This document shows, piece after piece, positions 5,060 to 62,055 of a DNA stretch of 64,000 nt. This DNA comes from Obrimoposthia wandeli. Its lineage: Eukaryota. The notes beneath the pieces are model-generated. The model worked only from the letters and a program-made list of their open reading frames with translations. It made no database searches and had not been told where the DNA came from. The translations under genes were made by a program, and so were the position numbers. Positions within the stretch are counted from its first letter, which is position 1; each line of letters begins with the position of its first letter. The DNA lies in assembly GCA_977020255.1 (NCBI GenBank), contig CDROCS010000890.1:62001-126000 (forward strand), given 5' to 3'.

Positions 5060-6118
5060 TATTTAACAAGCAAAATAATATCCCATCCATCACATTTAGA
5101 TGTGATATTTATTTTGTAGGCGTTGCAGCGGACTCATTTTTTCAATAAAATTGGAATATGGAAAAAACTGAAATTCTAGATGGTCTGGTAGGACATTTCT
5201 TTGCAAGTGACTGGAAATTTATTTTAAAGAGGTTAAATTTTTTGTTTGCTAACTTGTTAAAGTCTTATTGACCCAAAGATCCTTCAAGCTCAGGAGGTAG
5301 TAACAACTGACATGTTGGATATCATATTTTGTTGTTGAAATTATATCTTAATTGTAATAAAAGTTACTTATTTAAAGTACATAAAATGAAAATTATAATT
5401 AGCAGATCTGCCCTTGATTGAAAATCAGAACAAATATAATTTTTAACAAAACATCGTGAACTAATTTAGATTATCGTTGATGACAAAGATGTAATTTTCT
5501 ATATGTACTAAAAGCACCATTTTTTGGCAGTTTTATATTTTTGTAGTAGTTTAAATTGCACAAATGACGTTTTAGACACAAACATTTAACTTGAAGTCGA
5601 ACTTTTAAACATTGGTAGCTAAATATATTGGTTTATGCCAATAGAGAAAAATAGTTACAAAGAAGTGACATCAACAAAATTAAGTAAAACTCAACACTCC
5701 AAAACGGGGATTTTAGTTTTTTCTTTTATTTCAATTTGGTTATCTGTGGATCAGTGTAGCATTAATGGATTTCCCAAGTTGGTGTGCGAGCTGTATTGAA
5801 GTATTGGTAGAGTGTACGACGGTGCTCGGTAATTGATTATTATCGAGTCAGTAAGCAGCGAGAGATTATCGCAATTTCTATTTTGCAATTGAGTCGTGAA
5901 ATTTAATCAGGCAAGACTGCCGCTTTATTTGGTGAGTCGACAAAAGAGATCATCAGTGACAAGCAGTGGTCAGCATTGCAGAATATCTCTTGTAATACGA
6001 TAAGAAGACATAATTAACCTAGTGTGAGTTGACGTTATGCAAATTAGAAAATGAGTCGCTATGGCTTGTTGCATAATACTTCTTTTCCGATCGTAAAATA
6101 TGAACGCAAGCTCTAGGA

Positions 6119-6570
6119 CAGCGGTTCCCAACCTTTCTGGTGCGGTGACCCCTTGATAACATTTGCCAAGTTGCGGTGACCCATTGATAACATTTGCCAA
6201 GTTGCGGTGACCCCTTGATAACATTTGCCAAGTTGCGGTGACCCCTTTATAACATTTGCCAAGTTGCGGTGACCCCTTGATAACATTTGCCAAGTTGCAG
6301 TGACCCCAAGGATAACATTTGCCAAGTTGTGGTGACCCCTTGATAGCATTTGCCAAGTTGCGGTGACCCCTTGATAACATTTGCCAAGTAGCGGTGACCC
6401 CAAGGATAAAATAATTTTATCAACACAACAATTTGTAATATTTTAACTACAAAAAATTTATTGGCACAACTTGAAACAATTGAATAAAAAAAATTTTTAA
6501 TAAGGCCTTGCTGCCTTAGGCGACTCCAGGCAAATTGTCAGGCGACCCCAGATGGGGTTGGGAACCGCTG
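6119..6570. mobile_element. hAT-family MITE (Charlie-like ends)
   Basis: Terminal inverted repeats (TIRs) CAGCGGTTCCCAACC / GGTTGGGAACCGCTG with a perfect 8-bp TSD CTCTAGGA (6111-6118, 6571-6578). Confidence 0.9.
6141..6408. repeat. 31-bp minisatellite (~8.5 copies) inside the MITE
   Basis: Unit TGCGGTGACCCCTTGATAACATTTGCCAAGT recurs at 6141, 6172, 6203 and onward. Confidence 0.92.
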
Positions 6571-18090: not shown

Positions 18091-19849
18091 TTCATTTAAA
18101 AAAAGTTATATTTGGTGATTGATTGAATTCATTTTACTTTGCAGTACTTTGAATTTTATTCCTTAAAATGTTGGTAAAATTTGACTAAATTTTTACTTTT
18201 AGCTTTGTTCTTTGTACAGCGATGACACCTGGTATTTAATCATTGTAATAATGGATTTTTTCATTTTGTTTGATTATACCTGAGGTTTACATTTTCATTA
18301 AAGTATAACTGGTGTCTTGTATAATTCTTTTTATCAAAAGATTTCGTATATCACTCCAGTAGGTAGAAGGATGGAGTATAGATCACTTGACCCCCCCCTA
18401 AAGGGTGTCACTCCATAAGGGTTTCACACCAATAAAGGTGTCTTGCCACACCATAAGGGTATATGTTGCCTCACCTCTGGTGAGGCAACATAGTTGCTCC
18501 CTGTATGGTGTGGCAAGATACCTTTGCTCATGGTGACACACTTATGGTGTGAGACACCTTTAGGGGGTCAAGTGGATCTAGACTCCATCCTTCTTTGATA
18601 TACCACTATGGTCATCCATAGTTTAAAGGGTCAAGTGGCTTAGCTTAGTCTCCACCCTTCTTTTTGAGATATACCACTATGAAAGGGTCAAGTGGCTTAG
18701 TCTCCACCCTTCTTTTTGAGATATACCACTATGAAAGGGTCAAGTGGCTTAGTCTCCACCCTTATTTTTGGTTAACCACTAATTCAAAGGATCAAGTGGC
18801 TTAGTCTCCACCCTTCTTTTTTGTGATCTAGTCCATAATGAAAATTTATGATAAAGTTCACACTTAACAATTAAGAATGTATGACGTAATCATACACACA
18901 CTATTTTATGTGAAAATTTAGGATAAAGTTCACACTTATCAATTAAGAAATGTGGTTTTTAACACACACATACACTATTTTATGTGAAATTTATGATAAA
19001 GTTCACTCTTATCAATTAAGAAATGCGGTTTTTTTAACACACACATACACTATTTTATGTGAAATTTAAACTAAAGTTCACTCTTATAAGTTAATGAATG
19101 TATTACGTAATCACACACATACTATTTTATGTGAAATTTAGATCAAAGTTTTTCCTAGGCTTTCACATTTATAGAATTATGATAAAATTTCTTTAAATAA
19201 CTTCAATTATATATTAAAATAAAAAAATAAAATAAGAAAGAAGTCAGAGAATAATACAAAATTAAACACATTTATTATGTAATTTCATAATATCATCTTC
19301 AAACTTAAGTGAATACTACATTTTAAAGTAAGAAAGTCCATTCTTTATACATTCTTTTCGTTTCAACGAATAAGTTACAACAATTAATAGAAAATTAGTA
19401 AAAATATTAATTTATTTGAATATTTGAATGAGAGTTTGAATAAAATGAGAGGAAGATAGATATGAATGTAAATGAATGTAATAAATGCAATGAATGTCAT
19501 TTTACAAGTAAGATCTTAGCAGTGAATGTACTTTTAAAAATAAGAGTGTCGATAGTTTGATTGGTTGCAATTATAATATAGACTATAAGTAAAATTAAAA
19601 AGAGTTTTTGTTGAATAAATTATAGTTAGATTGAATGCAAGTATGACGAGCAAGTGATTGATAGTATGAATTCAATACAAGTAAATTAGGCTTTAGCAAG
19701 TGAATGTAATTTTAAAAATAAGAGTGTCGATAGTTTGATTGAATGCAAGTGTAATTTAGACTATAAGTAAATTAAAATAGAGTTTTTGTTGAATAAATTA
19801 TAGTTAGATTGAATGCTATAGTTTACAATAAATTTATGCATATATTCAC

Positions 19850-20630
19850 TTTAATATGTTGTAAGTTATTACTTTATTATAATTTTCAACAACAACTTCA
19901 AGTTGTTTACTTATTAAACATAAGTTTAATGTTTTGTACAATAAATTGACTTGTAAACATAATTTATTTTGGTATATTTTCAATTTAATATGTTGTAAGT
20001 TATTACTTTAATATAATTTACAACAAAAACTTCAAGTAATTTACTTGTAAACTACAATATTTATTTGTTGTTGTATATATTCAGTTTAAAAATGTTGTAA
20101 GTTAATACTTTAATATAAATTACAATTCAAATCTTCAAGTAATTTACTTATTAATCATAATTTTAATGATTTGATCAATAAATTGACTTGTAAACATAAT
20201 ATAATTTGCATATTTTCAATTTAATATATTGTAAGTTATTACTTTATTATAATTTTCAACAAAAACTTCAAGTAGTTTACTTATTAATCATAAGTTTAAT
20301 GTTTTGTACAATAAATTGACTTGTAAACATAATTTATTTTGGTATATTTTCAATTTATTTGATGTAAATTATTACTTTTATATAATTTACAACCAAAACT
20401 TCAAGAAATTTACTTAATAATCATAATTTTAATGATTTGATCAATAAATTGACTTGTAAACATAATATAATTTGCATATTTTCAATTTAATATATTGTAA
20501 GTTAATACTGTAATATTTCATTACATAAAAAGTAATTCATAGTTTACTGTCGTTTACTATAAATTTACTTGTAAACATAATATATTTATGCATTTATTCA
20601 CTTTAATACGTTTTAAGTTATTAGAATTTG
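19850..20630. repeat. Central AT-rich tandem array of the foldback element
   Basis: Repeated TAATATGTTGTAAGTTATTACTTT...CAACTTCAAGT...GACTTGTAAACATAAT modules with a period of about 120 bp. Confidence 0.75.
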
Positions 20631-20679
20631 TGTTCTTGTATTCAATGATTAACTTTTATTAAACTATTATAACATTGAC

Positions 20680-21260
20680 CTCTTATTTTTTAAAATTACA
20701 TTCACTTACTAAACCCACTTACTTGTATTGAAATTCATACTATCAATCACTTGCTCGTCATACTTGCATTCAATCTAACTATAATTTATTCAACAAAAAC
20801 TCTATTTTAATTTACTTATAGTCTAAATTACACTTGCATTCAATCAAACTATCGACACTCTTATTTTTTTAAAATTATCTACCTGCTAAACCCACTTACC
20901 ACTTGTATTGAAAAATTCAAACTATCAATCACTTGCTCGTCATACTTGCATTCAATCTAACTATAATTTATTCAACAAAAACTCTATTTTAATTTACTTA
21001 TAGTCTAAATTACACTTGCATTCAATCAAACTATCGACACTCTTATTTTTTTTTTAAAATTACATTCACTTGCTAAACCCACTTACTTGTATTGAAATTC
21101 ATACTATCAATCACTTGCTCGTCATACTTGCATTCAATCTAACTATAATTTATTCAACAAAAACTCTATTTTAATTTACTATTTATAGTCTAAATTACAC
21201 TTGCATTCAATCAAACTATCGACACTCTTATTTTTTTCTAAAATTACATTCACTTGCTAA
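20680..21260. repeat. ~180-185-bp unit repeated about 3 times in the right arm (about 2 inverted copies at 19520-19830)
   Basis: The unit CACTTGCTCGTCATACTTGCATTCAATCTAACTATAATTTATTCAACAAAAACTC...CTATCGACACTCTT is seen three times. Confidence 0.85.
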
Positions 21261-24200
21261 GACTCTTACTTGTAAAATGACATTCATACTTGCATGCATA
21301 ATTTTATTCATTTACATTCATTCTACCTCTCTTCATTTATTCAAACTCTCATTCAAATATTCAAATAAATTAATATTTTACTAATTTTCTATTAATTCCG
21401 TTGTAACTTAGTCGTTGAAACGAAAGGAAAATGTATAAAAAATGGACTTTCTTACTTTGTAAATGTTATTCACTTAAGTTTGAAGATATTATGAAATTAC
21501 ATAATAAATGTGTTTAATTTTGTATTATTCTCTGACTTCTTCTTTCTTATTTTATTTTTTTTATTTTAATATATAATTGAAGTTATTTAAAGAAATTTTA
21601 TCATAATTCTATAAATGTGAAAGCCTAGGAGAAAAACTTGATCTAAATTTCACATAAAATAGTATGTGTGTGATTACGTAATACATTCATTAACTTATAA
21701 GAGTGAACTTTAGTTTAAATTTCACATAAAATAGTGTATGTGTGTTAAAAAAAACCGCATTTCTTAATTGATAAGAGTGAGAACTTATCATAAATTTCAC
21801 ATAAAATAATTAATGTGTAATGTTAAAAACCACATTTCTTAATTGATAAGTGTGAACTTTATCCTAAATTTTCGCATAAAATAGTGTGTATTGTATAGTT
21901 ACGTCATACATTCTTAATTGTTAAGTGAACTTTATCATAAATTTTCATTATGGACTAGATCACAAAAGAAGGGGTGGGAGACTAAGCCACTTGATCCTTT
22001 GAATTAGTGGTTAACCAAAATAAGGGTGGAGACTAGACCACAAAAGAAGGGTGGAGACTAGATCACTAAAAAGAGAGTGGAACTAGATCACTAAGAAGAA
22101 TTGGAGACTAGATCACTAAAAGAGGGTGGAACTAAGCCACTTGACCCTTTCATAGTAGTATATCTCAAGAAGAGGTGGAGACTAAGCCATGACCCTTTCA
22201 TGGTGATATATCTCTCAAAAGAAGGGTGGAGACTAAGCCACTTGACCCTTTCATAGTGGTATATCTCAAAAAGAAGGGTGGAGACTAAGCCTCTTGACCC
22301 TTTAAACTATGGATGACCATAGTGGTATATCAAAGAAGGATGGAGTCTAGATCACTTGACCCCCCCCCTAAAGGGTGTCACACCATAAGGGTGTCACACC
22401 ATAAAGGTGTCTTGCCACACCATAAGGGTATATGTTGCCTCACCAGAGGTGACGACTTAATTTATTATTTTTAAGTTTGGGTAGGAAATGGAACTAATTT
22501 GGAATTTTAATTATATTTTTCTGGGAAGTACTATTTAAATTAATTTTCTTTTACATCAAATTATAAAGCAAAGATTAAAACTACACCTGTTTCCTAATTT
22601 TTTTGTAAATAAAAGTAAAAGCGTATTTTTGTTGAGTAAACTCAAATTTGCAAATGCCAAGTAACCTATTTGCAAAGTCTTTTGACTTCTTTTTACTTCA
22701 ATCACAGAAGCAAATTTGAGACACGTTAAAAGGTTTTTCGAAAGATTAGACAAAAATGTAAATAAACAACTTTCGGAAATCTAGCAAACTGAAAATCTCT
22801 ATTTTATCAGTAGCATTTTCTGTTTTGGTAATATCTAACTGGTGTAAAATCGAGAAATCGTCTTTGTTTTGAAATCAAATTGCCGGCCAAATCGTGTCGT
22901 CTGCAAATTCAAATAAATAGAGAGTGATTTTATTGTCCAGACAGATAACCGTATTCAGATCAGGTTACAGTCGCGAATAAATTATCTGCAAGCGACCATA
23001 AATTGTCATCTGGTCCACACGCAAAACTATAATCCCTCCCCTGTTTCCATCAGATTTTCTTTGCTGCTGACAAAGACACTGACGGTGATCACTGACCACT
23101 GTGAAGCTACATTTGATTTGGGATTTTATAATTGCAGATCGTTTTTCTGAAGTTAATTTCTTAACATAAACCTGAAAAGGGACATCATATTTTCAGCTTA
23201 AACACAAAGCAGTTCATTTGTTGTTTAGCCACTTTCGTGTTAATTACTCATAAATTAGCTTCATATTTACCACTGAAATTGGGAAACATCCAGAGCAGTT
23301 ATTAATGGTCAGAGGCAAAAGTGTCCATTGAGGCGTAGATAGATGGGAATTTTATTGCCAGAGATCGTGAGAGAAACGTTGTGACCAACCATCATAGTTT
23401 CACTCCACAGTATTTGCCATCGATTCGGACTCATTTGCGGCACAATGTGAGCATGGGGAGTTGGGAGTCTAGGTTCATGGAAGACTGCGTGATATAATTT
23501 ATTGTGTGAAGCTGATGATATGTTCGTACAACTCAAAAATATTTCAATGGAGCCATACACTAGAGAACAAAATTTCAGACAAAAGTTTTAATTTGAAGAA
23601 TTAATAGCACTTACTCTATTCGGCAAACATCACTATCTAAATTTATGTGAACTCTTCAATTTTCCTTCAACATTTTAAAGTACATTTTCTTCTTCCGTAC
23701 CTAGATGACTGAGAAAAATGTGTACAATAACAAATATAAGGAAACTTTCAATACAAAACGTCCTTAGATTAAAGTATATATAAAAGACAAAGAAAACCAA
23801 ATATATATTTAAAACATTCAACATCATTTCAAATCAGTTTCGTTTATTTTCCGTGAGAAATTTCTCGATATTATTTTGTTTTCTTTCTTTGATTGAAATC
23901 TACGACTTTTTTCAGATAATTGGGAAGATAAATGTCCTTTCGTAAAAAATCTGAACTACAATGATCATGATCTTACGTTTGCTTCGTATGTTCGATGTGC
24001 TGTGAGAAGATAAATGTTGTCATGTAACAAATAAAGTTTTTAGTTTCCCCCTTTTTATTGATAATGTTTGAGTTCCAATTGGCACATTTTTAGTGGAAAG
24101 AGTCAGAGTGGAAAATCTTTGTTGAATTCTCATAATTGAATTATCACCTCAAATCAGATATGTAAACAACGTCTCATGGTCAATTAAAACGTTAGGTAAA

Positions 24201-25341: not shown

Positions 25342-27160
25342 TGTTGGGGTTTCTATACGAGACTTGTATAGATCCTCTTGTGTGCGGAGGGCCCCAACGT
25401 GAGTTCTAATAGAAGCAGGTCTTAAAGTTGGTCGTGGCCTACTTAATGTTATGGTTGCCTATCTCAATTGCTTATCTGAAGGTGTTTGTTTTGACGTCTC
25501 TTAATCTGAAGGGTTTAAAACAACGTTTTCTAATGTAGGAAATCGTTTATTGTTAACACACTAGGTTAAACACAACAATACGTTTACGTACGTATTTTCT
25601 AAAAAGTTTCAGTAAAAATTCCTAAGACTTCTAAAAGTCTCACACCAGTGGGGATGAACCACGTATCGATTTTAAGTTAGGGTTGGTTGATCGCTAGAGT
25701 CTTTACTCTAATTCGCGACTGGACTCAAGTTATAGATTTTATGGAGCTGGTTGCTCTAATTCAATGGTGAGATTTTAGACAAAACCAATGCAATTTATAA
25801 TTTGTCACTTCTTAGACAATAATATTTAAAATTGGGATATTTCCAAGCAAAATAATTCAATTATAATTTGTCTCTTCTTAGACAAATAATATTTAAAATT
25901 GGGATATTTCAAGCAGACAATAATAATATTTAAAATTGGGATATTTCCAAGCAAAATAATGCAATTTATAATTTGTCACTTCTTAGACAATAATATTTAA
26001 AATTGGGATATTTCCAAGCAAAATAATTCAATTATAATTTGTCTCTTCTTAGACAATAATATTTAAAATTGGGATATTTCCAAGCAAAATAATTCAATTA
26101 TAATTTGTCTCTTCTTAGACAATAATATTTAAAATTGGGATATTTCCAAGCAAAATAATTCAATTATAATTTGTCTCTTCTTAGACAATAATATTTAAAA
26201 TTGGGATATTTCCAAGCAAAATAATTCAATTATAATTTGTCTCTTCTTAGACAATAATATTTAAAATTGGGATATTTCCAAGCAAAATAATTCAATTATA
26301 ATTTGTCTCTTCTTAGACAATAATATTTAAAATTGGGATATTTCCAAGCAAAATAATTCAATTATAATTTGTCTCTTCTTAGACTCGTCTCACCTATTTG
26401 ATCCTAGTGCTAATCCAAGATGGGTCCTTGGCTGATGAAGTCCTGTGCTTAGATTTGCGAGATATCCGAGACAATGGGGTACTAGGCTTGATGAAGTCCT
26501 GTGCTTAGATTTGCGAGATATCCGATGTTGACTTCAATTTGTGAGTAGCTAGATTCACTTGCTTTTCGTGTCGCGGAAAGACAGGTGTTTAATATGTTGG
26601 CTGGTAATAATATGCTGGTTCACGGCTAACTGACAGGTTGGGAATAATATGCTGGTTCACAGCTAACTAAATAATCGATATAGGCAGCAACTAAAAAATA
26701 CTACTGACCTGACTTTCTTCGTGTTTTGGGTTAAATTGTTCCCTGTTGTGATTTCTCGATCTCTTTTTTCTGCGAGTTTTCCTGTCAATAATCAAATTGA
26801 AACTAGACTTATATAGTCTTACCTCTGCTGTCGATCACTTGACAATGGATCGATTGCAATAGGTTTCCTTTGGCAGCTGATTTAGTTTTCTGTCAATCTT
26901 CTTAATTTTTCCTTTTTTGTCGACGTGGCTCTTTTTTTCTTAGTTAATTAATTTTTTGCACTTTTGCTTAATTAACTTAACCTTATATATAACGCATTAT
27001 ACACGACCTTCGTGGTCCTCTTAATATTTATTCCTATTTTAGTTTTAATAATTTAACTTGTTTTTAAAATTTATTTAATTCTTAACCTTGCTTTCAAGGA
27101 TTTTAATTTTGCTATAAAACAATTATTTATTTTAATTCTACTCAAAACCTAATCCTAACA
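25342..27160 (+). mobile_element. Solo LTR (Ty3/gypsy-type, 1819 bp)
   Basis: TGTTGGGG...CCTAACA termini with the 4-bp TSD CATC at 25338-25341 and 27161-27164. The first ~430 bp are closely similar to the 13112 copy. Confidence 0.9.
25800..26385. repeat. 66-bp tandem array (~9 copies) inside the solo LTR
   Basis: Unit TCTTAGACAATAATATTTAAAATTGGGATATTTCCAAGCAAAATAATTCAATTATAATTTGTCTCT recurs at 25981, 26047 and onward, with no spacers. Confidence 0.92.
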
Positions 27161-40851: not shown

Positions 40852-41094
40852 TATCGGATTGTGGTGCCAAGCAGAAACGGTAAAGTCCATTTCGTAACAA
40901 AACTATTATAAAATAATTATATGTTTAAGGAGAAATTGTTGACCTTATGATGAATCAAATAAAAACTCAGGGTTTAATAACATATTTACAAAATTTGTTC
41001 GCCGTAGAAGTGTTACGGTAATTTTCATAACAAAATATCTAATTCATCAGGTGGACACATTCATCTAAAACATAGGACACGACATTTGCATGTA
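40852..41094 (+). pseudogene. Maverick/Polinton packaging ATPase relic
   Basis: YRIVVPSRNGKVHFVTKLL (decayed Walker A), VDLMM (cf. DDLM), IFTKFVRRRSVTVIFIT (cf. LFTKxSHHRNxSVIFITQN). Cut off by the LTR at 41095. Confidence 0.5.
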
Positions 41095-41859
41095 TGTTAT
41101 AAATGAATATTTTCCAATAATGTATTGAAGTTTGAATAGTTTCAAATAATATATATTCTTCTTTTAGAAATAATTTGTTCTTCTTTTAGAAATATATTCA
41201 TAAAATAATTTGTGTGATAATGAAAACTGAATGTTATATTTGAATAGTTTCAATAGTAATTGAAGTTTGAATAGTTTCAAATAATATATATTCTTCTTTT
41301 AGAAATAATTTGTTCTTCTTTTAGAAATATATTCATAAAATAATTTGTGTGATAATGAAAAAGATCATAAAATAATTTATTAGATCATAAAATAATTTGT
41401 TAGATAAGTCTAATAATTTTTGTGTCGATAAGTCTGATCGACGATTGCTATAAATAGCAATCGTCCAAATGTCAAATACGATGTCCATTGAGGGAGAGAA
41501 AGTTGATGAAGTATCAACACACAATCACATTCACATGTGTAAGGAAGAAGCTGCAACATTAATAATCCGTGATCTTTACACATAGCCTTCTCTTAACAGT
41601 CCACATATTACAATCCTCTACATCGCTGGTCATCTCAACACTGTCTTATTGCATGGTATGATGGACTATGTTGTGGAGAAAAGGGGGAAATGACAATACA
41701 GGAGAGATTTCAGTCAACACACATTCACACTGGATAATTTTGAGAGGGAAAAACAGTGATTGTACGAAAAAGAATATAGAGATTGTGAGAGAGGAGAGAG
41801 GATATACACACCACACACCGACACTAAAGACAGCACCAAAGTTTTTGTGTGTAGCTTCA
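41095..41859 (-). repeat. 3' LTR (765 bp)
   Basis: Minus strand TGAAGC...TAACA. Nearly identical to 53050-53814 (two substitutions seen by eye). Contains an internal ~135-bp duplication. Confidence 0.88.
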
Positions 41860-42991
41860 TGTTGTCCTCAGAATCAGAGGAGGTGAGGTCTATAACCTCG
41901 GTTAAGGCAGGAAAATTAGCGTTGGTTACGCGGGGAAAAGAGACGGTCAAACCACATTCTTTTAGCAGTTCTTGTTCTTTATGGAGGAAAATTTCTCGGG
42001 TCCATTGCGTGTCTATGAGGCTAGAGTGGGTATTCTTTTGTATTTCTTTATTGAAATACCACGAAACCATTCGAGCAAGTCCGGCTTGTTCTCTACGGTT
42101 CATTTCCATTTGAATAGTTTGTGTTGCCCCTAGATCAACCGTGTGCGAAAAATCGTTTTTTTGTAATCCTAAAACTTTGAGATCGTTGGATATTCCCGTC
42201 CCTACGAAAATATTGTCTCTTAGCAAGGATTGGACACGTTCTAACACTTCGACAGAATCAGGTTGGTTTCTTAACTTCCGTTCATTAAGGCCCGTTATTC
42301 TTGTCACATAATTCCTGATTCTGTCTCTGCTATTGCATTTCGTATCCAACACGATCTGTCCGCTTCTATTCATTATTGTAATGCTAGCTAGGGTGGGTTG
42401 TTTGTTCATTTTTACTACCATTTCACAATCGACAAAAAATATTTGAGGATTGTTGGGTATGATATTCAAATGGCAGACTTGAACGGGATTAGGTCGCACA
42501 TTTTGCTCCATGAAAAATATGTTATTTCCACCCGAAAAACGAATCATCAAATCGGGAGTTATTTGATGTCTCATTAATCTGTAAGAGTGGTTTTGCAGGA
42601 GAAGGATAGAAAAATGTTTGCTTTTCCTGTGTTTTAAAAATCCACGGCCTTTTGCTACGTGAATCTCAATGTCCGTGCATATTGGTAAGAAATTCATCAA
42701 CTCAAACAGTCTTTTTTCCGTTGGCTTTTTACTATTTATGTTGAGAATTATACTTTGTCTTGGGGTGTCTCTTAACTTAATGCTATTTGGAAGCTGGGTC
42801 TGATTGTCAAAAAGCTTTATTCCGTAATGGTTATGGAAATACCTTGTTCCAAACTGTCTTATTTTTCCATAAAGGAACTTAGCCATTTTCGCCATTTCTG
42901 GACGTTGTTCTGCTAACTGGACCGACTTCTCTCTCTTTCCCCGCGGCACCACCTGCCAGTTCAAATGAGGATTCGTGCTTGTGGGTTCCAT
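41714..42991 (-). CDS. DEDDh 3'-5' exonuclease (REX4/ISG20-like) with an unknown N-terminal domain; retroelement accessory gene
   Basis: ExoI FVDCEMV, IRNYVTRITGL, ExoII VGTGISNDLKVL, ExoIII THSSLIDT. Intact frame. Likely start MEPTS at 42991 directly after a CAG acceptor; the stop lies within the 3' LTR. Confidence 0.85.
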   Translation of the reverse strand: MEPTSTNPHLNWQVVPRGKREKSVQLAEQRPEMAKMAKFLYGKIRQFGTRYFHNHYGIKLFDNQTQLPNSIKLRDTPRQSIILNINSKKPTEKRLFELMNFLPICTDIEIHVAKGRGFLKHRKSKHFSILLLQNHSYRLMRHQITPDLMIRFSGGNNIFFMEQNVRPNPVQVCHLNIIPNNPQIFFVDCEMVVKMNKQPTLASITIMNRSGQIVLDTKCNSRDRIRNYVTRITGLNERKLRNQPDSVEVLERVQSLLRDNIFVGTGISNDLKVLGLQKNDFSHTVDLGATQTIQMEMNRREQAGLARMVSWYFNKEIQKNTHSSLIDTQWTREIFLHKEQELLKECGLTVSFPRVTNANFPALTEVIDLTSSDSEDNMKLHTKTLVLSLVSVCGVYILSPLSQSLYSFSYNHCFSLSKLSSVNVC

Positions 42992-43425
42992 CTGTAGGGT
43001 ATACAGATATAGTAAAAAAAATGTTGATCTTTTACATGCAAATATAAAAATTGTCAACTGTCTATCAAATGAAATGTTCCTGTTAGTTATTTTGTCTCTT
43101 TTTGTTAATCAAAAATCTGTAAATCGTTTTTGTCTTTATGTAACAAGTTTAAACAAACAAGGTATATAAATCAGATATGATTTTTTCATTTTTTAATATA
43201 TATTCTTATTACTGGTGTTATCAATATCAATATATACATATCTATACTGGTATATTCATTTTTTACCTATTCTTAATTTTATTATTACTACAGTATTTCA
43301 ACTAAAGTTAATGAATATTAATACCCATTCATAAACGCATTTCCTCTCCAAAAACATGCCAAAAGCCCAAACTCATTCTCAATTTTCTTTTATTTTATAT
43401 TTTATTTTACTCACTGGGGATTTTA

Positions 43426-43734
43426 CTAATTTTCACACCCGGAATCATCGCTTTCTCCCGGTTGAAATCCCATCAAACGATTAATTACTGATCTCAATGA
43501 TACGAGAGAGTTTAATGCTTCTCTGAGTCGTCGTACTAATAATTCCTGATTTGTTTGGCTATGTTCTAATCTTTCAATTGCAACGTCAAAAGCATTATTC
43601 ATTCGTTCACATTCCATTTCCTTGTCTTTTAAATGCGATCTCAGATTTATATTCTCTATTAACAATTTATTTTCCCATTTTTTCTATCTTTTATATCTTC
43701 TTCTATTATTTTGTACTAATTTTGAATTTCTCAT
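43426..43734 (-). pseudogene. Small basic/coiled-coil accessory ORF (~100 aa, one internal stop)
   Basis: MRNSKLVQNNRRRYKR*KKWENKLLIENINLRSHLKDKEMECERMNN...RRLREALNSL, with heptad character. Confidence 0.5.
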
Positions 43735-43835
43735 TTTCTAAAATGTTAAAAAGTTTTTAAGTCTTATTTTGAGAAAGAGAAAAAAAAATTAAATCTTTTG
43801 ATTTTTACAAATCAGTGTTGTTTTTCTCTTTGTGT

Positions 43836-45045
43836 TTATAGTTCTTGATTACCGTATCTATTGATGTATTGGATGAATTTGTACCACTTGGTATTAGGGA
43901 TGTTATGAGTGGACCTGGTGGTCCATACAGTTTGTTTAAGTGAAATGATTTTTAGTTTTTATTCTTTTAAAAGTTTTTATTTTTATTATTACTTTTATTA
44001 AGATGTTAAACATTTCAATTATTATTGCTATTATTATCTTAAATTCTGTATGATATATGTTTTGTGAATGATTTCGTTGACTAAAAAATATTATATGTTT
44101 TAAGTTCATCGATTTTGATGAATTTATTGTATTTTTTAAAAAGGTTGACTGGTTTTGTATGTTTTCTTTAGAAATGATTGATGATATTTTCTTAAATATT
44201 TTTGTTGTATATTGTGTTAAATATATTTTCATTACTTTTGTTGATTTTAATATAGGTTCTTTTATTTTTATTATTAGCCAACTCCCGCAAAAAAGAGTTG
44301 GTTGAAACATTTTTGATATCTTTTTTCCTATTGTTTCTAAAGTAGTTATGTTTTTGTAAGTATTCAAAATGTGTCCCCAACTTCTATACATCATTGGTTT
44401 ATTTGTGATTACACATTCTCTATATTGTATTATTATTCTCTCTGGATATCTTATATTTTTTATGGTTAAATTTGTTTTAGTTTGTGTTTTTTCTAATTGT
44501 TTTTCTGAGTTTTTCCAAAATTATCATTATGTCCTCTATATCTAATTCTAATGAGGGCTTTATCTAAGTCGTCTATTTTTAGTTGAAATTCCCATTTTAT
44601 CATTATTTTATGTTTTGATATATATTTCGCTGTTGTTTCTAATATTGATGCTAGGTATATGTGAGTTTCTATAGTTCTTTGATAAAGTGTAATGTTTTGT
44701 GTATTTGATTTTATTTTAATTTCATATTGTGTTTCATCTCTTAAGAATGGTATTGTATATTTTCGTGATTTTATTCCTATTATTGTTATGTTTTGTTTTC
44801 TGTCTTTTTGTGTAATTTGTATATTTCCAGTTTTGTTTATAAAGAGCGAGATTTTTAACTTTATAGATGTGATTTCTGGTATTATCGTAATTAAACCAAA
44901 TTTTTTTATAAGATGTGTTGTCGAGTCATGTTTATTTATAACATTTTTTATAGTTAGTTTTTTATCATTTAGTTTGTTAGCATTTGCTCCTTGTACGTTT
45001 TTACTTATGAAGAGATAAATTGCGAATATTATTAAAATTTTTGAA
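43836..45045 (-). pseudogene. Post-integrase predicted type I membrane protein with FN3-like ectodomain (frameshifted)
   Basis: In frame after IN: hydrophobic KILIIFAIYLFISKNVQG|AN (signal-like) and KYTIPFLRDETQYEIKIKS (FN3-like). Frameshift near 44515, hydrophobic KIIIAIIIEMFNILIKVII, short tail after another shift. Confidence 0.5.
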
Positions 45046-45199
45046 AATTCCTTTATTGATATAACTATTGCCTTATTCCATTTAGATTTTTTGTTTTTAA
45101 TATTTTTTCTCTGTATATCTTGTATTGGTAACATTTGTAAAACTGTGTTTTTTGTGTTTGATCTCAAATTATATTTGTGGCTTTTTACTGTTGTATTCT

Positions 45200-46270
45200 C
45201 TTCTGGTACTTGTCGACATCTATTTATGTGTGTTCTTATTTCTTTTGATTTTAGTTCATTGTCGAGTTTAGCTGTTATGTTAGTTCCATTGGTACTAATA
45301 ACTGTATATGGTCCTTTGTATGGTTTTGATAATTTGTGTGATAATCCTACATTGATTTGTGGATTGTGAATCATTATTTTACTTCCGATTTTTATATTTG
45401 ATGGTTTAGTTCTTCTATCATAATATTCTTTGTAATTTTCTTGTATGTTTTTTACAAATAATTTAGCCTTTTCAAATGCTAGTTTTATTCTTTCTCTAAT
45501 TTCTATTTTGTATTCAGGTATTTCTAGGTATTGTGTAGTAGGTTGTAGTAATGTTAGGTCAATAGGCATTTGCGGATCTCTGAGGAACATAAGGTAAAAA
45601 GGTGTTTCTCCTGTAGATGCATGTACTGATGTTCTATATGCAAAAAGGCATGGGGGTATGTGCAAATCCCAATCTGTTTGGTTGTTGTTTGTATATGATG
45701 CCATCATATCTTCGAGGGTTCTATTAAATCTTTCTACTAATCCGTCGGTTTGAGGGTGATATGGTGTTGTATTGATCTTTTTTATGTGAAAGATTTCAGC
45801 TATTGATGCTAATACATTATTTATAAATTCAGGACCTTTGTCGGTTAATAACTTTCGGGGTGCACCGAAAGTAAAAATAATTTTTTCGACTAAAACCTTC
45901 GCGATGGTTTCAGCCTTATGATCATGTGTTGGAAAAGCTTCTGGCCATCTTGTAAAATAATCTGAAAATACTATTATATATCGATTTCCTCGGGGTGTTT
46001 CAGGTAATGGCCCCATTACATCCATGGCAACAGTTTCCATGGGGGCCGATGGATACGGTATTGGTTTTAAAGGTATCTTTGTGGTACGTAAGGTGTTTTT
46101 TCTTTTAAGACATATTTCACAAGTATTACACCAATTTTTACATCTTCTTTCATATCAATCCAATAATATTTTAAATTTAATCTTGAATGTGTCTTTTTTG
46201 TTGACAGATGTCCTCCTAAAGCTCCGTTATGATATTGAAGGAGTAATTGGCATTGTATTTCTTTAGGTAT
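45200..46270 (-). pseudogene. Integrase (HHCC, DDE core, GPY/F)
   Basis: HNGALGGH...WCNTCEIC (restored across two frameshifts near 46140 and 46085), VAMDVMGPL, LLTDKGPEF, GLVERFN, KPYKGPYTV. Confidence 0.93.
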
Positions 46271-48600
46271 AACTAGTGAGTACAGATTTTTATCGTTTAA
46301 ATAATGTAAAATATTGTTACTGAATTTATAGCGAGATTCATGAGTTTTTAAATGTTTTCTTAATTTTTCATCTGTTGGAACTTGATTGATGGTGATATAC
46401 TTAATTATTTGTTGTAATTCCGTATCTTTGCTTTGAAGATCGGTGATTACTTTATCATCATATCGAGCCTTGATTATTGTAAAAATATTTAATTCGGTGT
46501 CATTGGAATTTATTACATTTACTTCTTCTCTTATTCTAGATAGGCAATCTGCATTGGCATTTGATTTACCTTTTCTATATTTAATTTCAATATCATATTT
46601 TTGGAGAATTAACGCCCATCTCATTAATCTAGATGTTGTATCTTTATGTAATGGTCTTTGATCAGTATAAACGTGAACTTTTCGACCTAATAAGTAATGT
46701 TTAAAATGTTCCATTGCGAAACAAATAGCGAGACATTCTCTTTCTATTGTTGAATAATTTATTTCGTGTTTTTTAAGACCTCTGCTTGCGTACGCTATCA
46801 CATGATCTTTTTCATTATTATCCTGTTGTCCTAGTACTGCTCCTAACGCGTATCCACTTGCGTCAGTCATTACTAGAAACGAGTTGTTGAAATTAGGATA
46901 TCTCAATATAGGTTTTTCTATCAATTTTTGTTTTAAGTACTCGTATGACTCTTGTTGTTCCGTTTCCCATTCAAATTTTTCATCCTTTTTAATAAGTTTG
47001 TTTAATGGTGTTGCTATTTGTGCAAAGTTTCTGATAAATCGACGATAATATCCTGCAAGTCCTAAAAATTCTTGTATATTTTTTACTGTTTTTGGAATTG
47101 GAAAATTCTTTATTTTTTCTATATTACTTTCATCTGGTTGAATTCCTTTTGCTGATACTGCGTGACCTAGATAATTCACTTTGTCTTTCATCCATTCACA
47201 CTTTTTTGGTTTTAATTTTAAACCTGCTATTTTTAATCTAAGAAATACATTTTCTAAATCTTTTAAATGTTCTTCAAAATTTTTTGAAAAAATTAGAATA
47301 TCGTCGATATAAACCATGACATGATCGGCGTCCATCAAAATGTGACTCATGCATCTCTGAAATGTTGCTGGAGCACCTGTTAATCCAAAAGGTAAAACGT
47401 TAAATTCGTATAATCCTTCTCCTGTTGAGAATGCTGTTTTTTCTTTATCTGATTCATCTATTTCTATCTGCCAATATCCACTTTGTAAATCTAAGATTGT
47501 AAATATTTTTGCATTTTTTAGTTTATCTAAGATTTCATCGATTCTTGGAAGCGGATATGTGTCTTTATGTGTGATCTCGTTTAATTTTCTGTAATCTACG
47601 CAAAATCTTAGTGAACCATCTTTCTTTTTTATCAAAACAACTGGAGATGTCCATGCTGAAAAACTTCTTCTTATGATTTTATTTTCTAACATTCCTTTTA
47701 CCTGTCTTTGAGCTTCTTCTCTGTAAGCGTATGGGATACGGTAAGGTCGTTGTTTGATTGCTGTATTAATAGTTAACGGGAGGTTATGTTTAATTAAATC
47801 TGTTCGTCCAAGGTCATATTCATTTTTTGCAAAAATTACGTCATATTTTTCCATCAATGATTTTAGTTTTGATTTCTCATAATCATTTAATCTAATATTT
47901 TCAAATTTAACAGTGGAATTGTCTTCTATTTTTTCATTATTAATTAATTCTATATTTTCTATAACACTTATTTTTCCAAGGCGTGTTCCTACTTTTAGAT
48001 GAATCTCGTTTATGTCTCCATTTAGTATTCTGATAGGTATTGTGTTATTTCTTATTTTACAGATTATATTTGGTAGAACGTAATTTAGTGTTTCTTGTTG
48101 ATATTTATAAGGTTCGAATAAGATGTCTTTTTCTGTAACTATGTTAGTTTCTAATTGTAATATTGTTTGTGTTCTAGGTTGAAGGATGATATCTCCTTTT
48201 ATTTCCAATTCGTATTCGCTTTTAGCGTTTGGTCTGTAAATGTCTTTAATTTGATTTTTCTCAAAGTCGAAGTGAAAATTGTTTCCTAATTTCCTCAATG
48301 TATCTATTCCTATTATCATCTGACATGGACAATTTTTCATTATTCTAGTAGGTATTTTTATAAATTTATCTCCTATTTTAAAAATACAATCTAATTTACC
48401 AATAATATTTACGGGTTGACCGTTTGGTGCTGTTATTTGACTGTTATCTGTGAGAAGTAGTAATATTTGGTGTGGTTTTAAGAAATATTCGTCCAAAACT
48501 GTTACGCTTGATCCTGTGTCAATTAAAGCTTTTAATTTATACTCATTAATTTCAACTTTTACATAAGGTCGTCTATCATTATCCATTTGATTTATAGTAT
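46271..48600 (-). CDS. Pol: aspartic protease, reverse transcriptase and RNase H, in frame with upstream env C-terminus
   Basis: RPYVKV...LIDTGSS; RQRPYRIP-like KQRPYRIP; LRFCVDYRKLN; LPFGL; YIDD at 47300-47311; MTDASGYALGAVL; ERECLAI. All within ORF 46067..49555. Confidence 0.95.
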
Positions 48601-48769
48601 ATATTGTTGGTGCAGTTGATTTTTGAACTTTTGTTTCTTCTTTATATTTTTCTAAATCGGGGTATTGTGTAGATTCTGTATTCTCTTTATTTTTATTGTC
48701 TACTATTTTTTGTAAATTTGTTTCTCGCATTTCGTTTGATAATGCGTTTACAGTATTTTGATGATGATT

Positions 48770-50620
48770 AAATATAAGAAATTTTGCCAAAAATGGAAAA
48801 CATCCTAATATTAGTTTCCATGTTAATCCTCCAACTTTATAAATATAGTATGTGGATAAAATTTGACTCAATAGTATTTTAAAGCATATTAGTAGTGCAT
48901 ATATTCCTACAAGTCCAGAAAATGCTTGTCCAAATATTAAAAATTTTCCCCATATTTTTGACATTGTATTTTTTGTAGCTTTTATGTAATGGTTTGGAGA
49001 AAGTAATAAATCATAATCAGGACGGCCAATTCCGTTTGGTACTGATCTTTCAATTATTTGTGTTAAAATTCGTGATCTAATTTGAGGAAATAAAATTTCT
49101 TTTCTTAATTTGTCTATGTCTTCTTGTATGTAAATACCTTTTGTATTGAGTTCATTGTCTGACTTTATTTCTATGTCGTTATTGAGGTCGGTTAATTGTA
49201 ATTTTAATGGTTGAGCGACTATGTCTCTTCTTGGGAGTGATATCCAAATATCCTTTGAGATTTGATAATGAGGTGCCATTATGTTTGAGCAATTCATTTC
49301 CTTTATACTGAATGTATTAAAAAGTATTATTCTGGTGATTGGTTCTACGAATAGTGAATGATTTTTATATGAAATTGGTAATTCTTTAGTGCATTTATTG
49401 TGATTTCTTATATTAACTATTACTTTTTGGCATTGATACGTATATAGTACCTCTCCCATTACTCTTCCGAAAGTACCATCTGGTAACGGTAATAATGGTG
49501 TTATTAATTCTGGATTTGTAGCAATAATTGCTAGTTTTGTTTTCAATACAGTCATTCATTATCGTTTCTTTATAAATTGCTTCTATTGTCATTAATCCTT
49601 TGTGATAAAAATAATCTAATTTATTATTGAAATAATCATAATTTTTTATATCAAATTTTGTTGGTGTAGTTTTTGCATTATAAATTTTTTCTTTACTTAC
49701 ATATATTCCTTTATAATTAGTTGTATAAATAGAGTGTCCACATCGGGATTCCTCTTTCTTTTTAATAAATCGCATACCTGAACCTTGTTCAGTTGACATT
49801 AAAATAGTTGGAGTTGATGTTTTTTGTATTTTTCTAGTTCTATATGTTTTAAGTATATTTTTTGGAATTCGTTGATCTAGCTCTGGATCATCTTTGAATC
49901 TTTGACCTTGAATTATTTGGAAATTTTCTGATTTTAGTAGTATTAATTTACATTGGTCTGTTTTTACCTTATAGTATAAAATTGAAGATCCTGTGTTACA
50001 ATATCCGATATTTGCTGCACAAAAAGGCATAGTCACCATGGTATTTGTAGATGGATCAAATGTTGCTTTAAATGTTCTTAGTTCTACCTCAAAGTTTTTT
50101 ATAACTACTAAACCATTTTGTTTAACTCCCATTACGACGTATGATCCTGTTGTGCATTCTCCGTCAGATTTGATAGTTCCTACCACTGTAATCATTTGTT
50201 GTATTATTTTGTTTTTTATTGCTTTTACTTTTATTTCTCTATCTATTCTCAGTTCGCCTGTTGCAAAAGCATCTTTACAATTTAACGCGTCAACAATTAT
50301 TGGTGTTTTTCCTAATGCTGGCTTAACAATTGAATTATGGCTGTGTTTGCCGCAATATGTTATGAATGTTTCCACATGTACTCTACATTCGAAAACTTCT
50401 GTATTTATGTAATCTGTTTCCTGGTATACATGAAATAACTTGGTGGTTTTAACTTTTACTTCATTTGGATCTGCGTCGGCGCATTGTTGTAAATCCATTA
50501 GTGAATATTTATTTTGTATACTATATTTTGAACAATCATATGCTTCAAGAGCATTTATAGGTTTTATAATATTTGTAATTATACATATCATAAATATTAT
50601 TTGAATTATTTTCCATAAAT
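48770..50620 (-). pseudogene. Envelope glycoprotein, class III fusogen-like (herpes gB/chuvirus G type); one frameshift near 49555
   Basis: Signal-like IIQIIFMICIITNIIKPINA|LEAYDC...YSLMDLQQC, C-rich ectodomain (ECRV...TYCG, GECTTG, FCAANIGYC), GEVLYTYQC...CTKELPI...FVEPITRI, and C-terminal TM FLIFGQAFSGLVGIYALLICFKILL. Confidence 0.75.
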
Positions 50621-50870
50621 TCTGGATGATTTTGTTAAAATTATATGTATTTTTAAGATTTGAATTTTTACTATTTTTTGGTGATTTTCGTTTATTTTTA
50701 TTTTTCGATTTTTTATTTTGTGTTTGAGTGGTTTGATTTATTTTTGTACTTATTTGTGTTCTTTTTTCTAATGTTAGACAACCGTTTCTAAATATTTCTC
50801 CGAATTCGGATTGAGAGTTAGTACTATTTGTGTTTTGCTCATTGTTTTGGTATTGCTGATGTGTTTCTTT

Positions 50871-51562
50871 TTAGCGATTATCTATTTCTTGTTGTCTTAA
50901 TCTCATCAATGCAACCTCCTCTGTTTCCTGATTTATATCAGTGTTTTCAATAGTATGTATTGGGTTTCTGTAAGCATATTGTTGATTTTGATTGTTAAAC
51001 TGTACTGTTTTTTGACTCTGTGGTTGTGGTAGTTGTTGTTTTATTGTTGTGTTACCAAATTGGTTCATCATTGTATTTAGTTTGCTACATTCATCAGTAT
51101 TGTGATTTTTCATATTACAAATTTTACAAAATTTTGTATTAGTATTAAAATATTTAGCTTGATTATTTTGATTATTGAAATTATTATATGGGCTTCTAAA
51201 ATTACTATTTGTTATTTGTCGATTATTTGTTCGTTGTTTATCTGTACAATAGGTGGTTCTGGGATGGCTACTGCTTCCGTTATTTCTGACGAACTATCCG
51301 AGTCAGATGTTTGTGGTGAAGGTAAACTCTCTGTATCTGAGGTTAAAGCTAGGTCCAGATGTTCTGAGAGTGGGGAAGTCTGTGTAAGTAAATCGTTATT
51401 TGTTGTAAAACTGATTTGTGATTTGGGTCTTTGAACTGTTTTTTCACTGGAGTCTGTTCTAACTAATCTTGTTTGAATTCTTCTCCAGTGAAGGCTAGCG
51501 CTACGTTTTTGTTTACTTATTTTGTGTGTCTGTTTTTGTGATAGATCTTTGGGTTTGTGTTA
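50871..51562 (-). pseudogene. Gag remnant with CCHC zinc knuckle; capsid domain apparently missing
   Basis: CKICNMKNHNTDEC (C-x2-C-x4-H-x4-C) at 51087-51128. An upstream Ser/Pro-rich frame joins via a frameshift near 51240. Confidence 0.7.
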
Positions 51563-53035
51563 TTAATAATTTATTTAAAGTTTCACAATCAAATATTGCA
51601 CAAATGAAAAATGCGTACTGCGTACTGAAACTAAAAATATTTCGGAGGAATTCGTAAAAGTTATTTAGTCAATCTCAAAATCAAACTCTCTTATCAATAT
51701 TAAAAACACGCTCTCTGAAAATCTCTGGAGAAAATTTATCTTTCCGAAGTTTTATTTTATTTTGTTTTTTAATTTTTTAGAACAATAACAAGACTCAAAA
51801 ATTTATCTCAACAATCTCTGTCCCTTATCACTTTGAGCACTACCACCGCCAACCAGTATATAGTCTTTATATGATAGCACTCGACGTAACTTGGGAAACA
51901 AGACAATTTGCGACAAAATTTTAAATTTTTTGATCAATTTTATTTTTATACAAAAATATATTTATATGATTATTTTAACTTTTATTATCTTTTTAGTTAT
52001 TTATTTTACTTTTACGCCTCTAATAGATAAATCTACTCCAATTTATAGTTCTCAAAAAATGAATTTCCTACTGGTAAACCGGTTCAAAGGAAAATGTTAA
52101 AATTTTTTCAAAATTTTCTATAACTCTTATGATTAAAATAATCAACACGACTCAAATTATAAAAGAAAATTAGATAACAGGACCCGACTATGTTTCCGGA
52201 AACAAAATTATGTTTTCTCTTACGAGGCTTGTGCGCAAAGCTGCGAATACCTCACTATATTTATTTTATATTATACTTATAATATTAACCAAGGTAATAT
52301 GATATAAAAGTTCTTAAAATTTTACACTAATCGCAAATTTTTCACAAAAAAAAAATTGAATGTTGTTAGCCCTGAAACTGCAAATATCGAAGGCCACAAA
52401 ACCAAAACAATATACCAAAATGGGTAAATGTAATTAACGCAAGGTTAATGGGCAAAGTTGAATGGAAACTTCAATCACTTTTAGTTATTCATATTAAAAA
52501 CATATACTACAAACAGAATATTAAAATGAAATATTTTAGATGTTATTATAATTTAATAATTATTCTGTGTGGAGCTCTATCTTCAACACCAAATTTTAAA
52601 AAGTCAAAGAATTTTAATTAAATGAATATTTGGAAATTTGATAAATTCCCTTTTCAATTTTTTTGTAGATTTTGAAAATTATAATATTAAACGTGATAGT
52701 GATGGAGAAAATTTATTTTAACCAAAGCTTATGTGTTATGAATAATACAGTAAATCAAATTATCTGGAATTAATAGTATCCAAAAGTTAATAGTATAATA
52801 GTATAATTAATATTATAATAGATAATACAGTAAATCAAATTATCTGGAATTAATAGTATCTAGAAGTTAATAGTATAATAGTATAATTAATAGTATAATA
52901 GTAGAAGATTTTAATAATATTTCACAAATAAATATAGAAATAAAGACTAATGTCTTAAAATGATCTTACAATTATCAAAAAATTAAAAATAAAAATAACA
53001 ACTCTTGCCTTTTTTTAAAAGATTCCGTGCTCTTT

Positions 53036-53048
53036 GTCGAGCTCACCA
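53036..53048 (-). promoter_or_regulatory. Primer-binding site
   Basis: TGGTGAGCTCGAC begins 1 nt after the 5' LTR end (TAACA) and is complementary to a tRNA 3' end ...GUCGAGCUCACCA. Confidence 0.75.
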
Positions 53049-53049
53049 A

Positions 53050-53814
53050 TGTTATAAATGAATATTTTCCAATAATGTATTGAAGTTTGAATAGTTTCAA
53101 ATAATATATATTCTTCTTTTAGAAATAATTTGTTCTTCTTTTAGAAATATATTCATAAAATAATTTGTGTGATAATGAAAACTGAATGTTATATTTGAAT
53201 AGTTTCAATAGTAATTGAAGTTAGAATAGTTTCAAATAATATATATTCTTCTTTTAGAAATAATTTGTTCTTCTTTTAGAAATATATTCATAAAATAATT
53301 TGTGTGATAATGAAAAAGATCATAAAATAATTTATTAGATCATAAAATAATTTGTTAGATAAGTCTAATAATTTTTGTGTCGATAAGTCTAATCGACGAT
53401 TGCTATAAATAGCAATCGTCCAAATGTCAAATACGATGTCCATTGAGGGAGAGAAAGTTGATGAAGTATCAACACACAATCACATTCACATGTGTAAGGA
53501 AGAAGCTGCAACATTAATAATCCGTGATCTTTACACATAGCCTTCTCTTAACAGTCCACATATTACAATCCTCTACATCGCTGGTCATCTCAACACTGTC
53601 TTATTGCATGGTATGATGGACTATGTTGTGGAGAAAAGGGGGAAATGACAATACAGGAGAGATTTCAGTCAACACACATTCACACTGGATAATTTTGAGA
53701 GGGAAAAACAGTGATTGTACGAAAAAGAATATAGAGATTGTGAGAGAGGAGAGAGGATATACACACCACACACCGACACTAAAGACAGCACCAAAGTTTT
53801 TGTGTGTAGCTTCA
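53050..53814 (-). repeat. 5' LTR (765 bp)
   Basis: Direct repeat of 41095-41859, followed on the minus strand by the PBS. Confidence 0.88.
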
Positions 53815-54616
53815 TGGCCGGATTGTACAGTTGGTCAATGCAGTCACCGCTGGACCAATCAGACACACAGGTCTGGCAAATCGACGATTACTAAAAATAG
53901 CAATCGCCCAAAATTCCATCTTCACTGAATCTCTTGCAGCCAGCAATACTCAGATACGGTGCACCATCGCAGACGTTGTCGGTTATTGCTGGACACACAT
54001 CATTGTCAAAGTTAGGCATGCTGTCGGGGTCTCGCCTGCCATCTCCAAGAGTTGTGCGGGAAGAGGAGGAAAAGAGAGATGACGATGCCCAGGTTGATGG
54101 TGAACATGTAAAGGCAACTGAATAAGCTAAGCTCCAAGACCGCCATGCAGATAGGGTAGACCATGAGGTAGCTGTTGAACAGTGAGATGCCGGACATATC
54201 CGCCACGTAGTAGAAATAGGGTAGTGAAGGATACACAGGGGCGGTTGGGCAGGTGGGAAATTTGTTGTCAGGGAGGCAACTGCTTCCGAGATGGGATGAT
54301 TGAAGGTTGTTGCCTCTCCGGATGATGATGAAGGGAATAGGTCGCTGCTACTGGGCGGTAATATTTTTATGATAAGAATCCCTTTTATCAACCGCTTTTT
54401 TCGCCGCCTTCCTGATGAGCCCGGCAGGGCGAAACGGGCTAACAACCCGTCGGAGGCTGAGATTTGATAAACCTCCCTAATTGTGGGCACTTTAGATAAT
54501 TTTAAAAAATGTCAATTTAAATTGACTGTAATTTAATTAATTAATTTTAATTAAAGACCCAACATGTACATTAAAATCTTTAAAATTAAACTTTTTTAAA
54601 AAATTAATCTTTTAAA

Positions 54617-61833: not shown

Positions 61834-62055
61834 ATGGATAATAAAAATTGGAATAAATTATACATAAAATTATCTCCAGATTTAATGGAAGATTATAAAA
61901 ATATTACTTTTCAGAAAATGATACTGAGGAAATTGTTGGAGATAAATTATGTAATTTAATTTCTAAATATTTAGGTATGTTTACATTTAATATAATTTAT
62001 TTTAATATTCATAGGAGAATTGACAATATATACCAATCTTAACATGAAAGACTGA
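61834..62055 (+). pseudogene. Small two-exon orphan gene (40-nt intron 61975-62014)
   Basis: ATG at 61834; G|GTATGT...TTCATAG|GA joins KYLG-ELTIY. One frameshift in exon 1. Confidence 0.3.

Follow-up and report, generated by a model that had tools for sequence, protein, structure and literature searches.

What is encoded by the long frame that continues beyond the integrase of a retroelement in Obrimoposthia wandeli, and could it be a second membrane protein beside the fusion protein of the same element? To our knowledge, descriptions of long terminal repeat (LTR) retroelements include no more than one envelope protein, which serves for both binding and fusion. The element in question occupies 41094-54564 on the minus strand of a 64,000-nucleotide stretch of genomic DNA (positions 62,001 to 126,000 of contig CDROCS010000890.1, assembly GCA_977020255.1), hereafter called the window, to which all coordinates refer. 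A first-pass annotation of this DNA had proposed a fusogen before pol and, fused downstream of the integrase, a surface protein resembling fibronectin type III (FN3) domains. The fusogen proved to be real, matching the gB-type/Monjiviricetes glycoprotein family PF24664. The post-integrase tail is predicted to be a second type I glycoprotein, likely an attachment or adhesion protein that would aid the fusogen in cell-to-cell movement, a reading that we hold at about even confidence.

The integrase frame of the window copy (44493-46154, minus strand) reads on for 273 codons beyond the GPY motif, close to the ∼250 residues first reported, through a basic stretch (45081-45107), a signal-like hydrophobic segment (45006-45038) and the sequence KYTIPFLRDETQYEIKIKS (44706-44762). 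A frameshift near 44520 follows, and another frame then holds a hydrophobic, membrane-spanning-like segment (43984-44037), as previously described; a second frameshift near 43940, leading into a Pro-containing tail with a stop near 43806, had been overlooked. Nine of 42 distinct genomic copies, which were retrieved with the window stretch as query and are not a random sample, keep the frame open over 503 codons after GPY until a stop that they share with each other and with the window copy, and a stop directly after the integrase is absent from natural copies. In 2000 base shuffles of the 444 codons that follow the integrase in one natural copy, the mean number of stops was 40 and the minimum 18, and no open run exceeded 120; the two alternative frames of the same region contain 71 and 32 stops. 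The open tail frame is far beyond chance. Eleven copies break where the window copy breaks. On the copy tree they are dispersed, with 8 changes for 11 copies and without clustering, as repeated slips in base runs would produce.

The tail runs in the order basic stretch, signal-like segment, beta-rich ectodomain of ∼310 residues, anchor-like segment, second basic stretch and 55-residue tail, with the following parts:

44988-45107, minus strand: predicted internal signal peptide, with a basic n-region (45081-45107), an h-region (45006-45038; KD19 peak 1.9) and a small-residue c-region, a pattern shared with relatives
44640-44897, minus strand: FN3-like domain 1, from Pfam, a hold-out profile, AF2, Foldseek, VIA and shared variants
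44350-44639, minus strand: beta-rich domain 2, FN3-like by eye only, with the frameshift near 44520 in the window copy
44040-44349, minus strand: third segment or stalk, with several N-glycosylation sequons in natural copies and no family match
43951-44037, minus strand: predicted membrane anchor (43984-44037, with Glu, Asn and Lys inside; KD19 2.3-2.65 in nine copies) and basic stop-transfer stretch
43805-43950, minus strand: cytoplasmic-type tail with GPPGP, reaching the common stop, with the frameshift near 43940 in the window copy

At the level of hydropathy and motifs, this is the layout of a type I membrane glycoprotein, comprising a signal, an ectodomain with sequons, one anchor, a basic stop-transfer stretch and a tail. 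The two membrane proteins suggested by the first-pass annotation are both predicted, the fusogen and a post-integrase protein flanked by signal-like and anchor-like segments, the latter assigned from hydropathy. No chromodomain was detected after the integrase by Pfam or PDB matches, so that the element is not chromovirus-like in this respect.

The assignment to FN3 comes from domain 1. The structure model (AF2, pLDDT 75.6) is an FN3-type sandwich with seven strands in the s-type arrangement, and the Leu-x-Pro/Asp-x-Thr-x-Tyr signature of the E-F loop is present; the Trp of strand B and the Tyr of strand C that mark FN3 domains are absent. The top 24 Foldseek rows for this model are all FN3 proteins, and VIA also gives FN3 matches. 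Against a clade profile from which the window family was held out, domain 1 scores 8.3 bits, a value reached by none of 200 shuffles. A profile built from 16 repeats of relatives, again without the window family, gave 18 PDB matches at E ≤ 10, every one an FN3 protein. The direct Pfam match to fn3 has an E value of 0.055, and its 14.1 bits lie below the PF00041 cut-off of 25. Domain 1 is therefore an FN3-like fold, as judged from the model, but not a PF00041 member. The tail has no direct homologue and no match among 1.84 billion representatives, so that a stretch which appears blank in such a search conceals a conserved FN3 module.

The same layout is kept in related elements. A search among longer proteins, with the fusogen-Pol frame as query, gave 12 matches, six of which contain fusogen, reverse transcriptase and integrase. 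Five of these six public polyproteins run 477-748 residues past GPY, through a signal-like segment, beta-rich repeats, a stalk, an anchor, a basic stretch and a tail; P0005 is the exception. A scan with the integrase C terminus yielded 19 metagenome and three genome-bin loci, and 12 of the 14 examined reach GPY. All 10 complete metagenome tails (429-1188 residues) show the order signal, ectodomain, anchor and tail, with an anchor of KD19 2.5-3.1 at the end, while the contig of L148 ends inside the tail and the tail of L149 ends after one repeat. The fusogen was verified upstream only in L132, L136, L138 and P0004-P0009. In an integrase tree, the window family and its relatives fall together in a clade of 20 (support 92/91), in which the highest integrase identity of the window family to any relative is 56%. 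From these sequences, the layout is lineage-wide and kept in most of the clade.

Relatives with this layout mostly carry one to three FN3-like repeats, some with a Ser/Thr-rich stalk. Receptor-binding proteins change fast in repeat number and sequence while their topology is kept. By analogy, a fixed slot combined with a variable number of repeats (one to three) and fast sequence change fits an attachment or adhesion protein. The main rival to this interpretation is that the same type I FN3 protein acts on the host cell, mimicking a cytokine or adhesion receptor or serving as a decoy for one and thereby lowering immunity or shielding the cell that carries the element, akin to the host-manipulating cargo known from this lineage. 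Poxviruses possess FN3 cytokine-receptor decoys. However, the FN3 matches of domain 1, at 11-20% identity, express no more than a fold held in common, and the tail is without a signalling domain. Other cargo varies by family, whereas most of the clade has the FN3 protein in the same place, the end of the polyprotein, which looks closer to the behaviour of a core component. A decoy function is rather unlikely on this balance.

Selection within the family was assessed from variants common to at least three of the 42 copies, compared with private ones; the counts are small and the copies related, so that p values are rough. Shared variants in the integrase comprise seven synonymous and two replacement changes (w 0.08). 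Across the whole tail the corresponding counts are 15 and 20 (w 0.33, p 0.002), and private variants in the tail give w 0.80. Domain 1 resembles the integrase, with six synonymous changes and one replacement (w 0.04), which shows purifying selection on this domain. No stop in the tail is common to at least three of the 42 copies, although five private stops were found.

Several observations weigh against the reading of the tail as a second glycoprotein for attachment or adhesion. Domain 2 (one synonymous and five replacement shared variants, w ∼1) and the anchor plus tail (three and 10, w 0.9) give no sign of purifying selection, and the predicted anchor contains the polar or charged residues Glu, Asn and Lys. 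The beta-rich, FN3-like repeats of the first-pass annotation hold for domain 1; domain 2 is beta-rich, but in hhalign five of 60 shuffles score as high against canonical FN3 and 49 of 60 against the clade, and there is no Pfam fn3 match. An FN3 assignment of domain 2 is not supported by these comparisons, and one FN3 domain only is shown in the window family. Sequence-level FN3 scores all lie under curated cut-offs, the best Pfam E value among members being 0.0014, and the repeats used for the profile were chosen partly by an FN3-like motif, which biases it towards FN3. That profile fails to find P0007, L135, L137, L138 and a second family of the same genome (family B, below). The sampling of relatives is narrower than the counts imply, as L132 is the same as P0004 and one assembly supplied seven of the 10 metagenome tails, three close pairs being among them. 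Among the 20 clade integrases, P0005 and P0016 are without an anchor and L149 stops before one. The fusogen, finally, ends in two hydrophobic peaks by hydropathy, which makes any topology proposed for Pol tentative.

Some of these features would also be expected if the protein were an ancestral feature of the clade now decaying in the window family, with the signal kept to end the integrase, domain 1 retained, the rest drifting and the element spreading through the germ line without it. The w values of domain 2 and of the anchor plus tail, the polar residues in the anchor, a composition of 51% A and a tail broken in 33 of 42 copies all agree with decay. Yet the stops are private, the window-like break is scattered as expected of repeated slips after insertion, and Gag, fusogen and Pol are broken likewise. 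Bearing in mind that the counts are small, we consider decay unlikely.

The remainder of the element, from its upstream LTR to its downstream flank, comprises the following features:

53049-54564, minus strand: 5′ LTR, 1516 bp, of which 768 bp are 99.7% identical to the 3′ LTR; outer end set from the 3′ LTRs of seven other copies
53030-53047, minus strand: primer-binding-site-like sequence, starting TGG directly after the LTR
50874-51559, minus strand: gag remnant with an in-frame stop before the fusogen, ∼0.9 kb shorter than in another copy
48800-50640, minus strand: gB-type/Monjiviricetes fusion glycoprotein, with a signal-like segment and an anchor (48869-48913) of its own, from PF24664 (E values 3e-30 and 2e-51) and hydropathy
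46140-48577, minus strand: protease, reverse transcriptase, RNase H and integrase zinc finger, in frame with the fusogen, from Pfam
45160-46154, minus strand: integrase core and C-terminal domain (GPY at 45300-45314, YNLRS at 45159-45173), with an rve E value of 2e-12
43426-43683, minus strand: small accessory open reading frame (ORF), coiled-coil-like
41714-43108, minus strand: accessory ORF with a DEDDh exonuclease domain (RNase_T E value 8e-10; D-E-D-H-D residues visible)
41094-41861, minus strand: 3′ LTR remnant, 768 bp, its first part gone in the window copy, from LTR comparison
41090-41093, plus strand, and 54565-54568: 4-bp target-site duplication TGTA, flanking both LTRs

The gene order is therefore gag, PF24664 fusogen, protease, reverse transcriptase, RNase H, integrase, tail, small ORF and DEDDh exonuclease ORF. 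LTRs with TG...CA ends, the target-site duplication, the order of protease, reverse transcriptase, RNase H and integrase, and the GPY/F motif are those of Ty3/gypsy elements, and the fusogen stands in frame between gag and pol. Placed by gene order and fusogen type, the element, present in multiple copies, belongs to the Burro-like GAG-ENV-POL type of Ty3/gypsy elements. All 40 scored DNA matches to the family lie at 97-100% identity and all 150 scored protein matches at 95-100%, values from which the family is judged large and young. The window copy, at 13.5 kb, is defective, with the gag deletion and in-frame stop, and several frameshifts including one in the fusogen near 49500. In two natural copies gag gives Retrotrans_gag matches with E values of 3e-4 and 3e-3, below the Pfam cut-off. 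The gag-fusogen junction is open in nine of 10 other copies checked, indicating that a single frame runs from Gag through the fusogen and Pol into the tail. The small coiled-coil-like ORF has 103 codons in other copies and is open in eight of the 10 checked. L132, L133 and L136 likewise have an exonuclease ORF beyond the polyprotein; in the window copy the N-terminal half of this ORF is long and uncharacterised.

Fusion in a single ORF would imply that the tail protein is synthesised together with the fusogen. In the mechanism proposed, the polyprotein would thread the endoplasmic reticulum membrane twice, entering at the fusogen signal, returning at the fusogen anchor and re-entering at the post-integrase signal. 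Gag, the protease-to-integrase portion and the short C-terminal tail would then be cytosolic, and the fusogen and the FN3 protein luminal. The entry into the fusogen has the same basic-plus-hydrophobic pattern as the post-integrase signal. Cleavage by signal peptidase at the internal signal would free the end of the integrase and yield a type I glycoprotein in a one-to-one ratio with the fusogen; this glycoprotein could reach the cell or particle surface and bind a host surface or matrix partner. If, alternatively, the tail stays attached, it might tether the integrase or the whole of Pol to the endoplasmic reticulum or plasma membrane for particle assembly, with the luminal FN3 part as a folding spacer. 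The tail is indeed fused in frame to the integrase in every case seen, and the signal is predicted from hydropathy only. Integrase must nevertheless reach the nucleus, in several relatives the integrase is separated from the signal by an additional protease domain or by ankyrin repeats, and up to three repeats and a stalk exceed what a tether needs; a tether thus appears improbable.

Class III fusogens, such as herpesvirus gB, often need a separate binding partner. Two-part viral entry is performed by herpesvirus gD or gH/gL with gB and by paramyxovirus HN, H or G with F. These systems, like those with poxvirus decoys, have a separate binding or decoy glycoprotein beside the fusogen, a likeness for which no homology is shown. 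Their proteins come from separate genes, whereas both proteins of the window element would come from one polyprotein, as in flaviviruses and bunyaviruses, the polyproteins of which are processed by signal peptidase. A bolder reading, less likely than not, is that this lineage of animal retrovirus-like elements has a two-part entry system within one polyprotein. The gB-type fusogen ahead of Pol would be paired with an FN3 glycoprotein that follows the integrase, evolves fast and binds receptors; signal peptidase would free both, and the FN3 protein would determine the choice of cell. In the portions of the literature searched, no binding partner is named for gB-type errantivirus fusogens, and the conserved membrane protein that shares the polyprotein with the fusogen offers a tangible candidate. 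The passage of these elements between cells thereby becomes a testable question in a host group, presumably planarians, amenable to RNA interference.

The closest published systems share the backbone of the element. The portion of PMC6431247 covering Burro/GYPSM1 describes giant planarian gypsy elements with one long ORF, in which env lies between gag and the protease, reverse transcriptase, RNase H and integrase, and matches mononegavirus fusion glycoproteins; ankyrin, ubiquitin-like, Bcl-2-like and RING cargo is also reported. The window family shares the gag-env-pol single ORF, and Burro-type cargo also occurs in its relatives, but the family itself is compact (13.5 kb in the deleted copy) and without such cargo before Pol. 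Membership in Burro proper was rejected on this size and on the lack of BIR, Bcl-2 and ankyrin Pfam matches in the window family, which is a relative and not a member. The Burro section of that paper contains no signal-FN3-anchor protein after the integrase, nor the word fibronectin; the accessible part of PMC8532177, on Burro-type elements, adds expression only.

According to the available text of PMC13524379, GAG-ENV-POL errantiviruses with HSV/gB-type fusogens occur in Nematoda, Bryozoa and Platyhelminthes, with one membrane protein per element and with integrase C termini folded only where a chromodomain was detected. Their gene order and fusogen type, as given there, are those of the window element, and by eye the window fusogen has motifs in common with the six Schmidtea ENV sequences of supplement file 3, a likeness that suggests a planarian host. 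Neither fibronectin nor FN3 occurs in the text and seven supplements, figures apart. LTR elements of bdelloid rotifers, in the part of PMC5408684 consulted, carry extra ORF3s (a DEDDy exonuclease and small transmembrane ORFs) and so resemble the window element in having an accessory exonuclease and extra membrane ORFs downstream of pol; these are separate ORFs without FN3, and the transmembrane ORFs are proposed as a replacement for env, not a companion. The sORF2 of Drosophila MDG1-group elements, as described in the available portion of 10.1101/2025.03.14.642691, is likewise a non-env membrane protein for cell-to-cell spread of an LTR element, but it is a short FAST-like fusogen in elements without env, as opposed to a large FN3 ectodomain beside a full fusogen. 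An FN3 membrane protein after the integrase was not found described for such elements in the literature searched, the primary Burro papers being outside its coverage. The backbone, with env in frame between gag and pol, is already published; the predicted FN3-like second membrane protein would be the new part.

Further variation was seen around the integrase and polyprotein ends of the relatives. Extra aspartyl-protease domains follow the integrase in P0005, P0007, P0008, P0016 and L133-L135, and in L133 and L134 ankyrin repeats come next, ahead of the signal-FN3-anchor module. Long accessory ORFs (607-717 residues) with no Pfam match lie downstream of the polyprotein at L129:3723-5873, L137:3308-5434 and L138:9958-11778. 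Family B (L081:1329-6677, minus strand), a second fusogen-bearing family in the genome of the window, has frames open for up to 5301 residues and a fusogen 34-38% identical to that of the window family. Its tail of 1783 residues contains three repeated beta-rich units, several hydrophobic segments, an intact-looking dual-specificity phosphatase (HCxxGxSRS) and a degenerate second one, and is followed by RING-finger ORFs.

The records of P0009, L148 and L149 are labelled as bacterial genome bins although their elements are of animal type, most likely owing to contamination. Conversely, L098, L100, L105, L107 and L115, from the same assembly as the window, encode Bacteroidetes-type secreted proteins and are likely bacterial contamination. 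Elsewhere in the window, nested inverted repeats from tandem units around ∼1 kb form a foldback-element-like region at 18575-22353, and minisatellites with units of 31 and 66 bp lie at 6118-6432 and 25729-26427, respectively.
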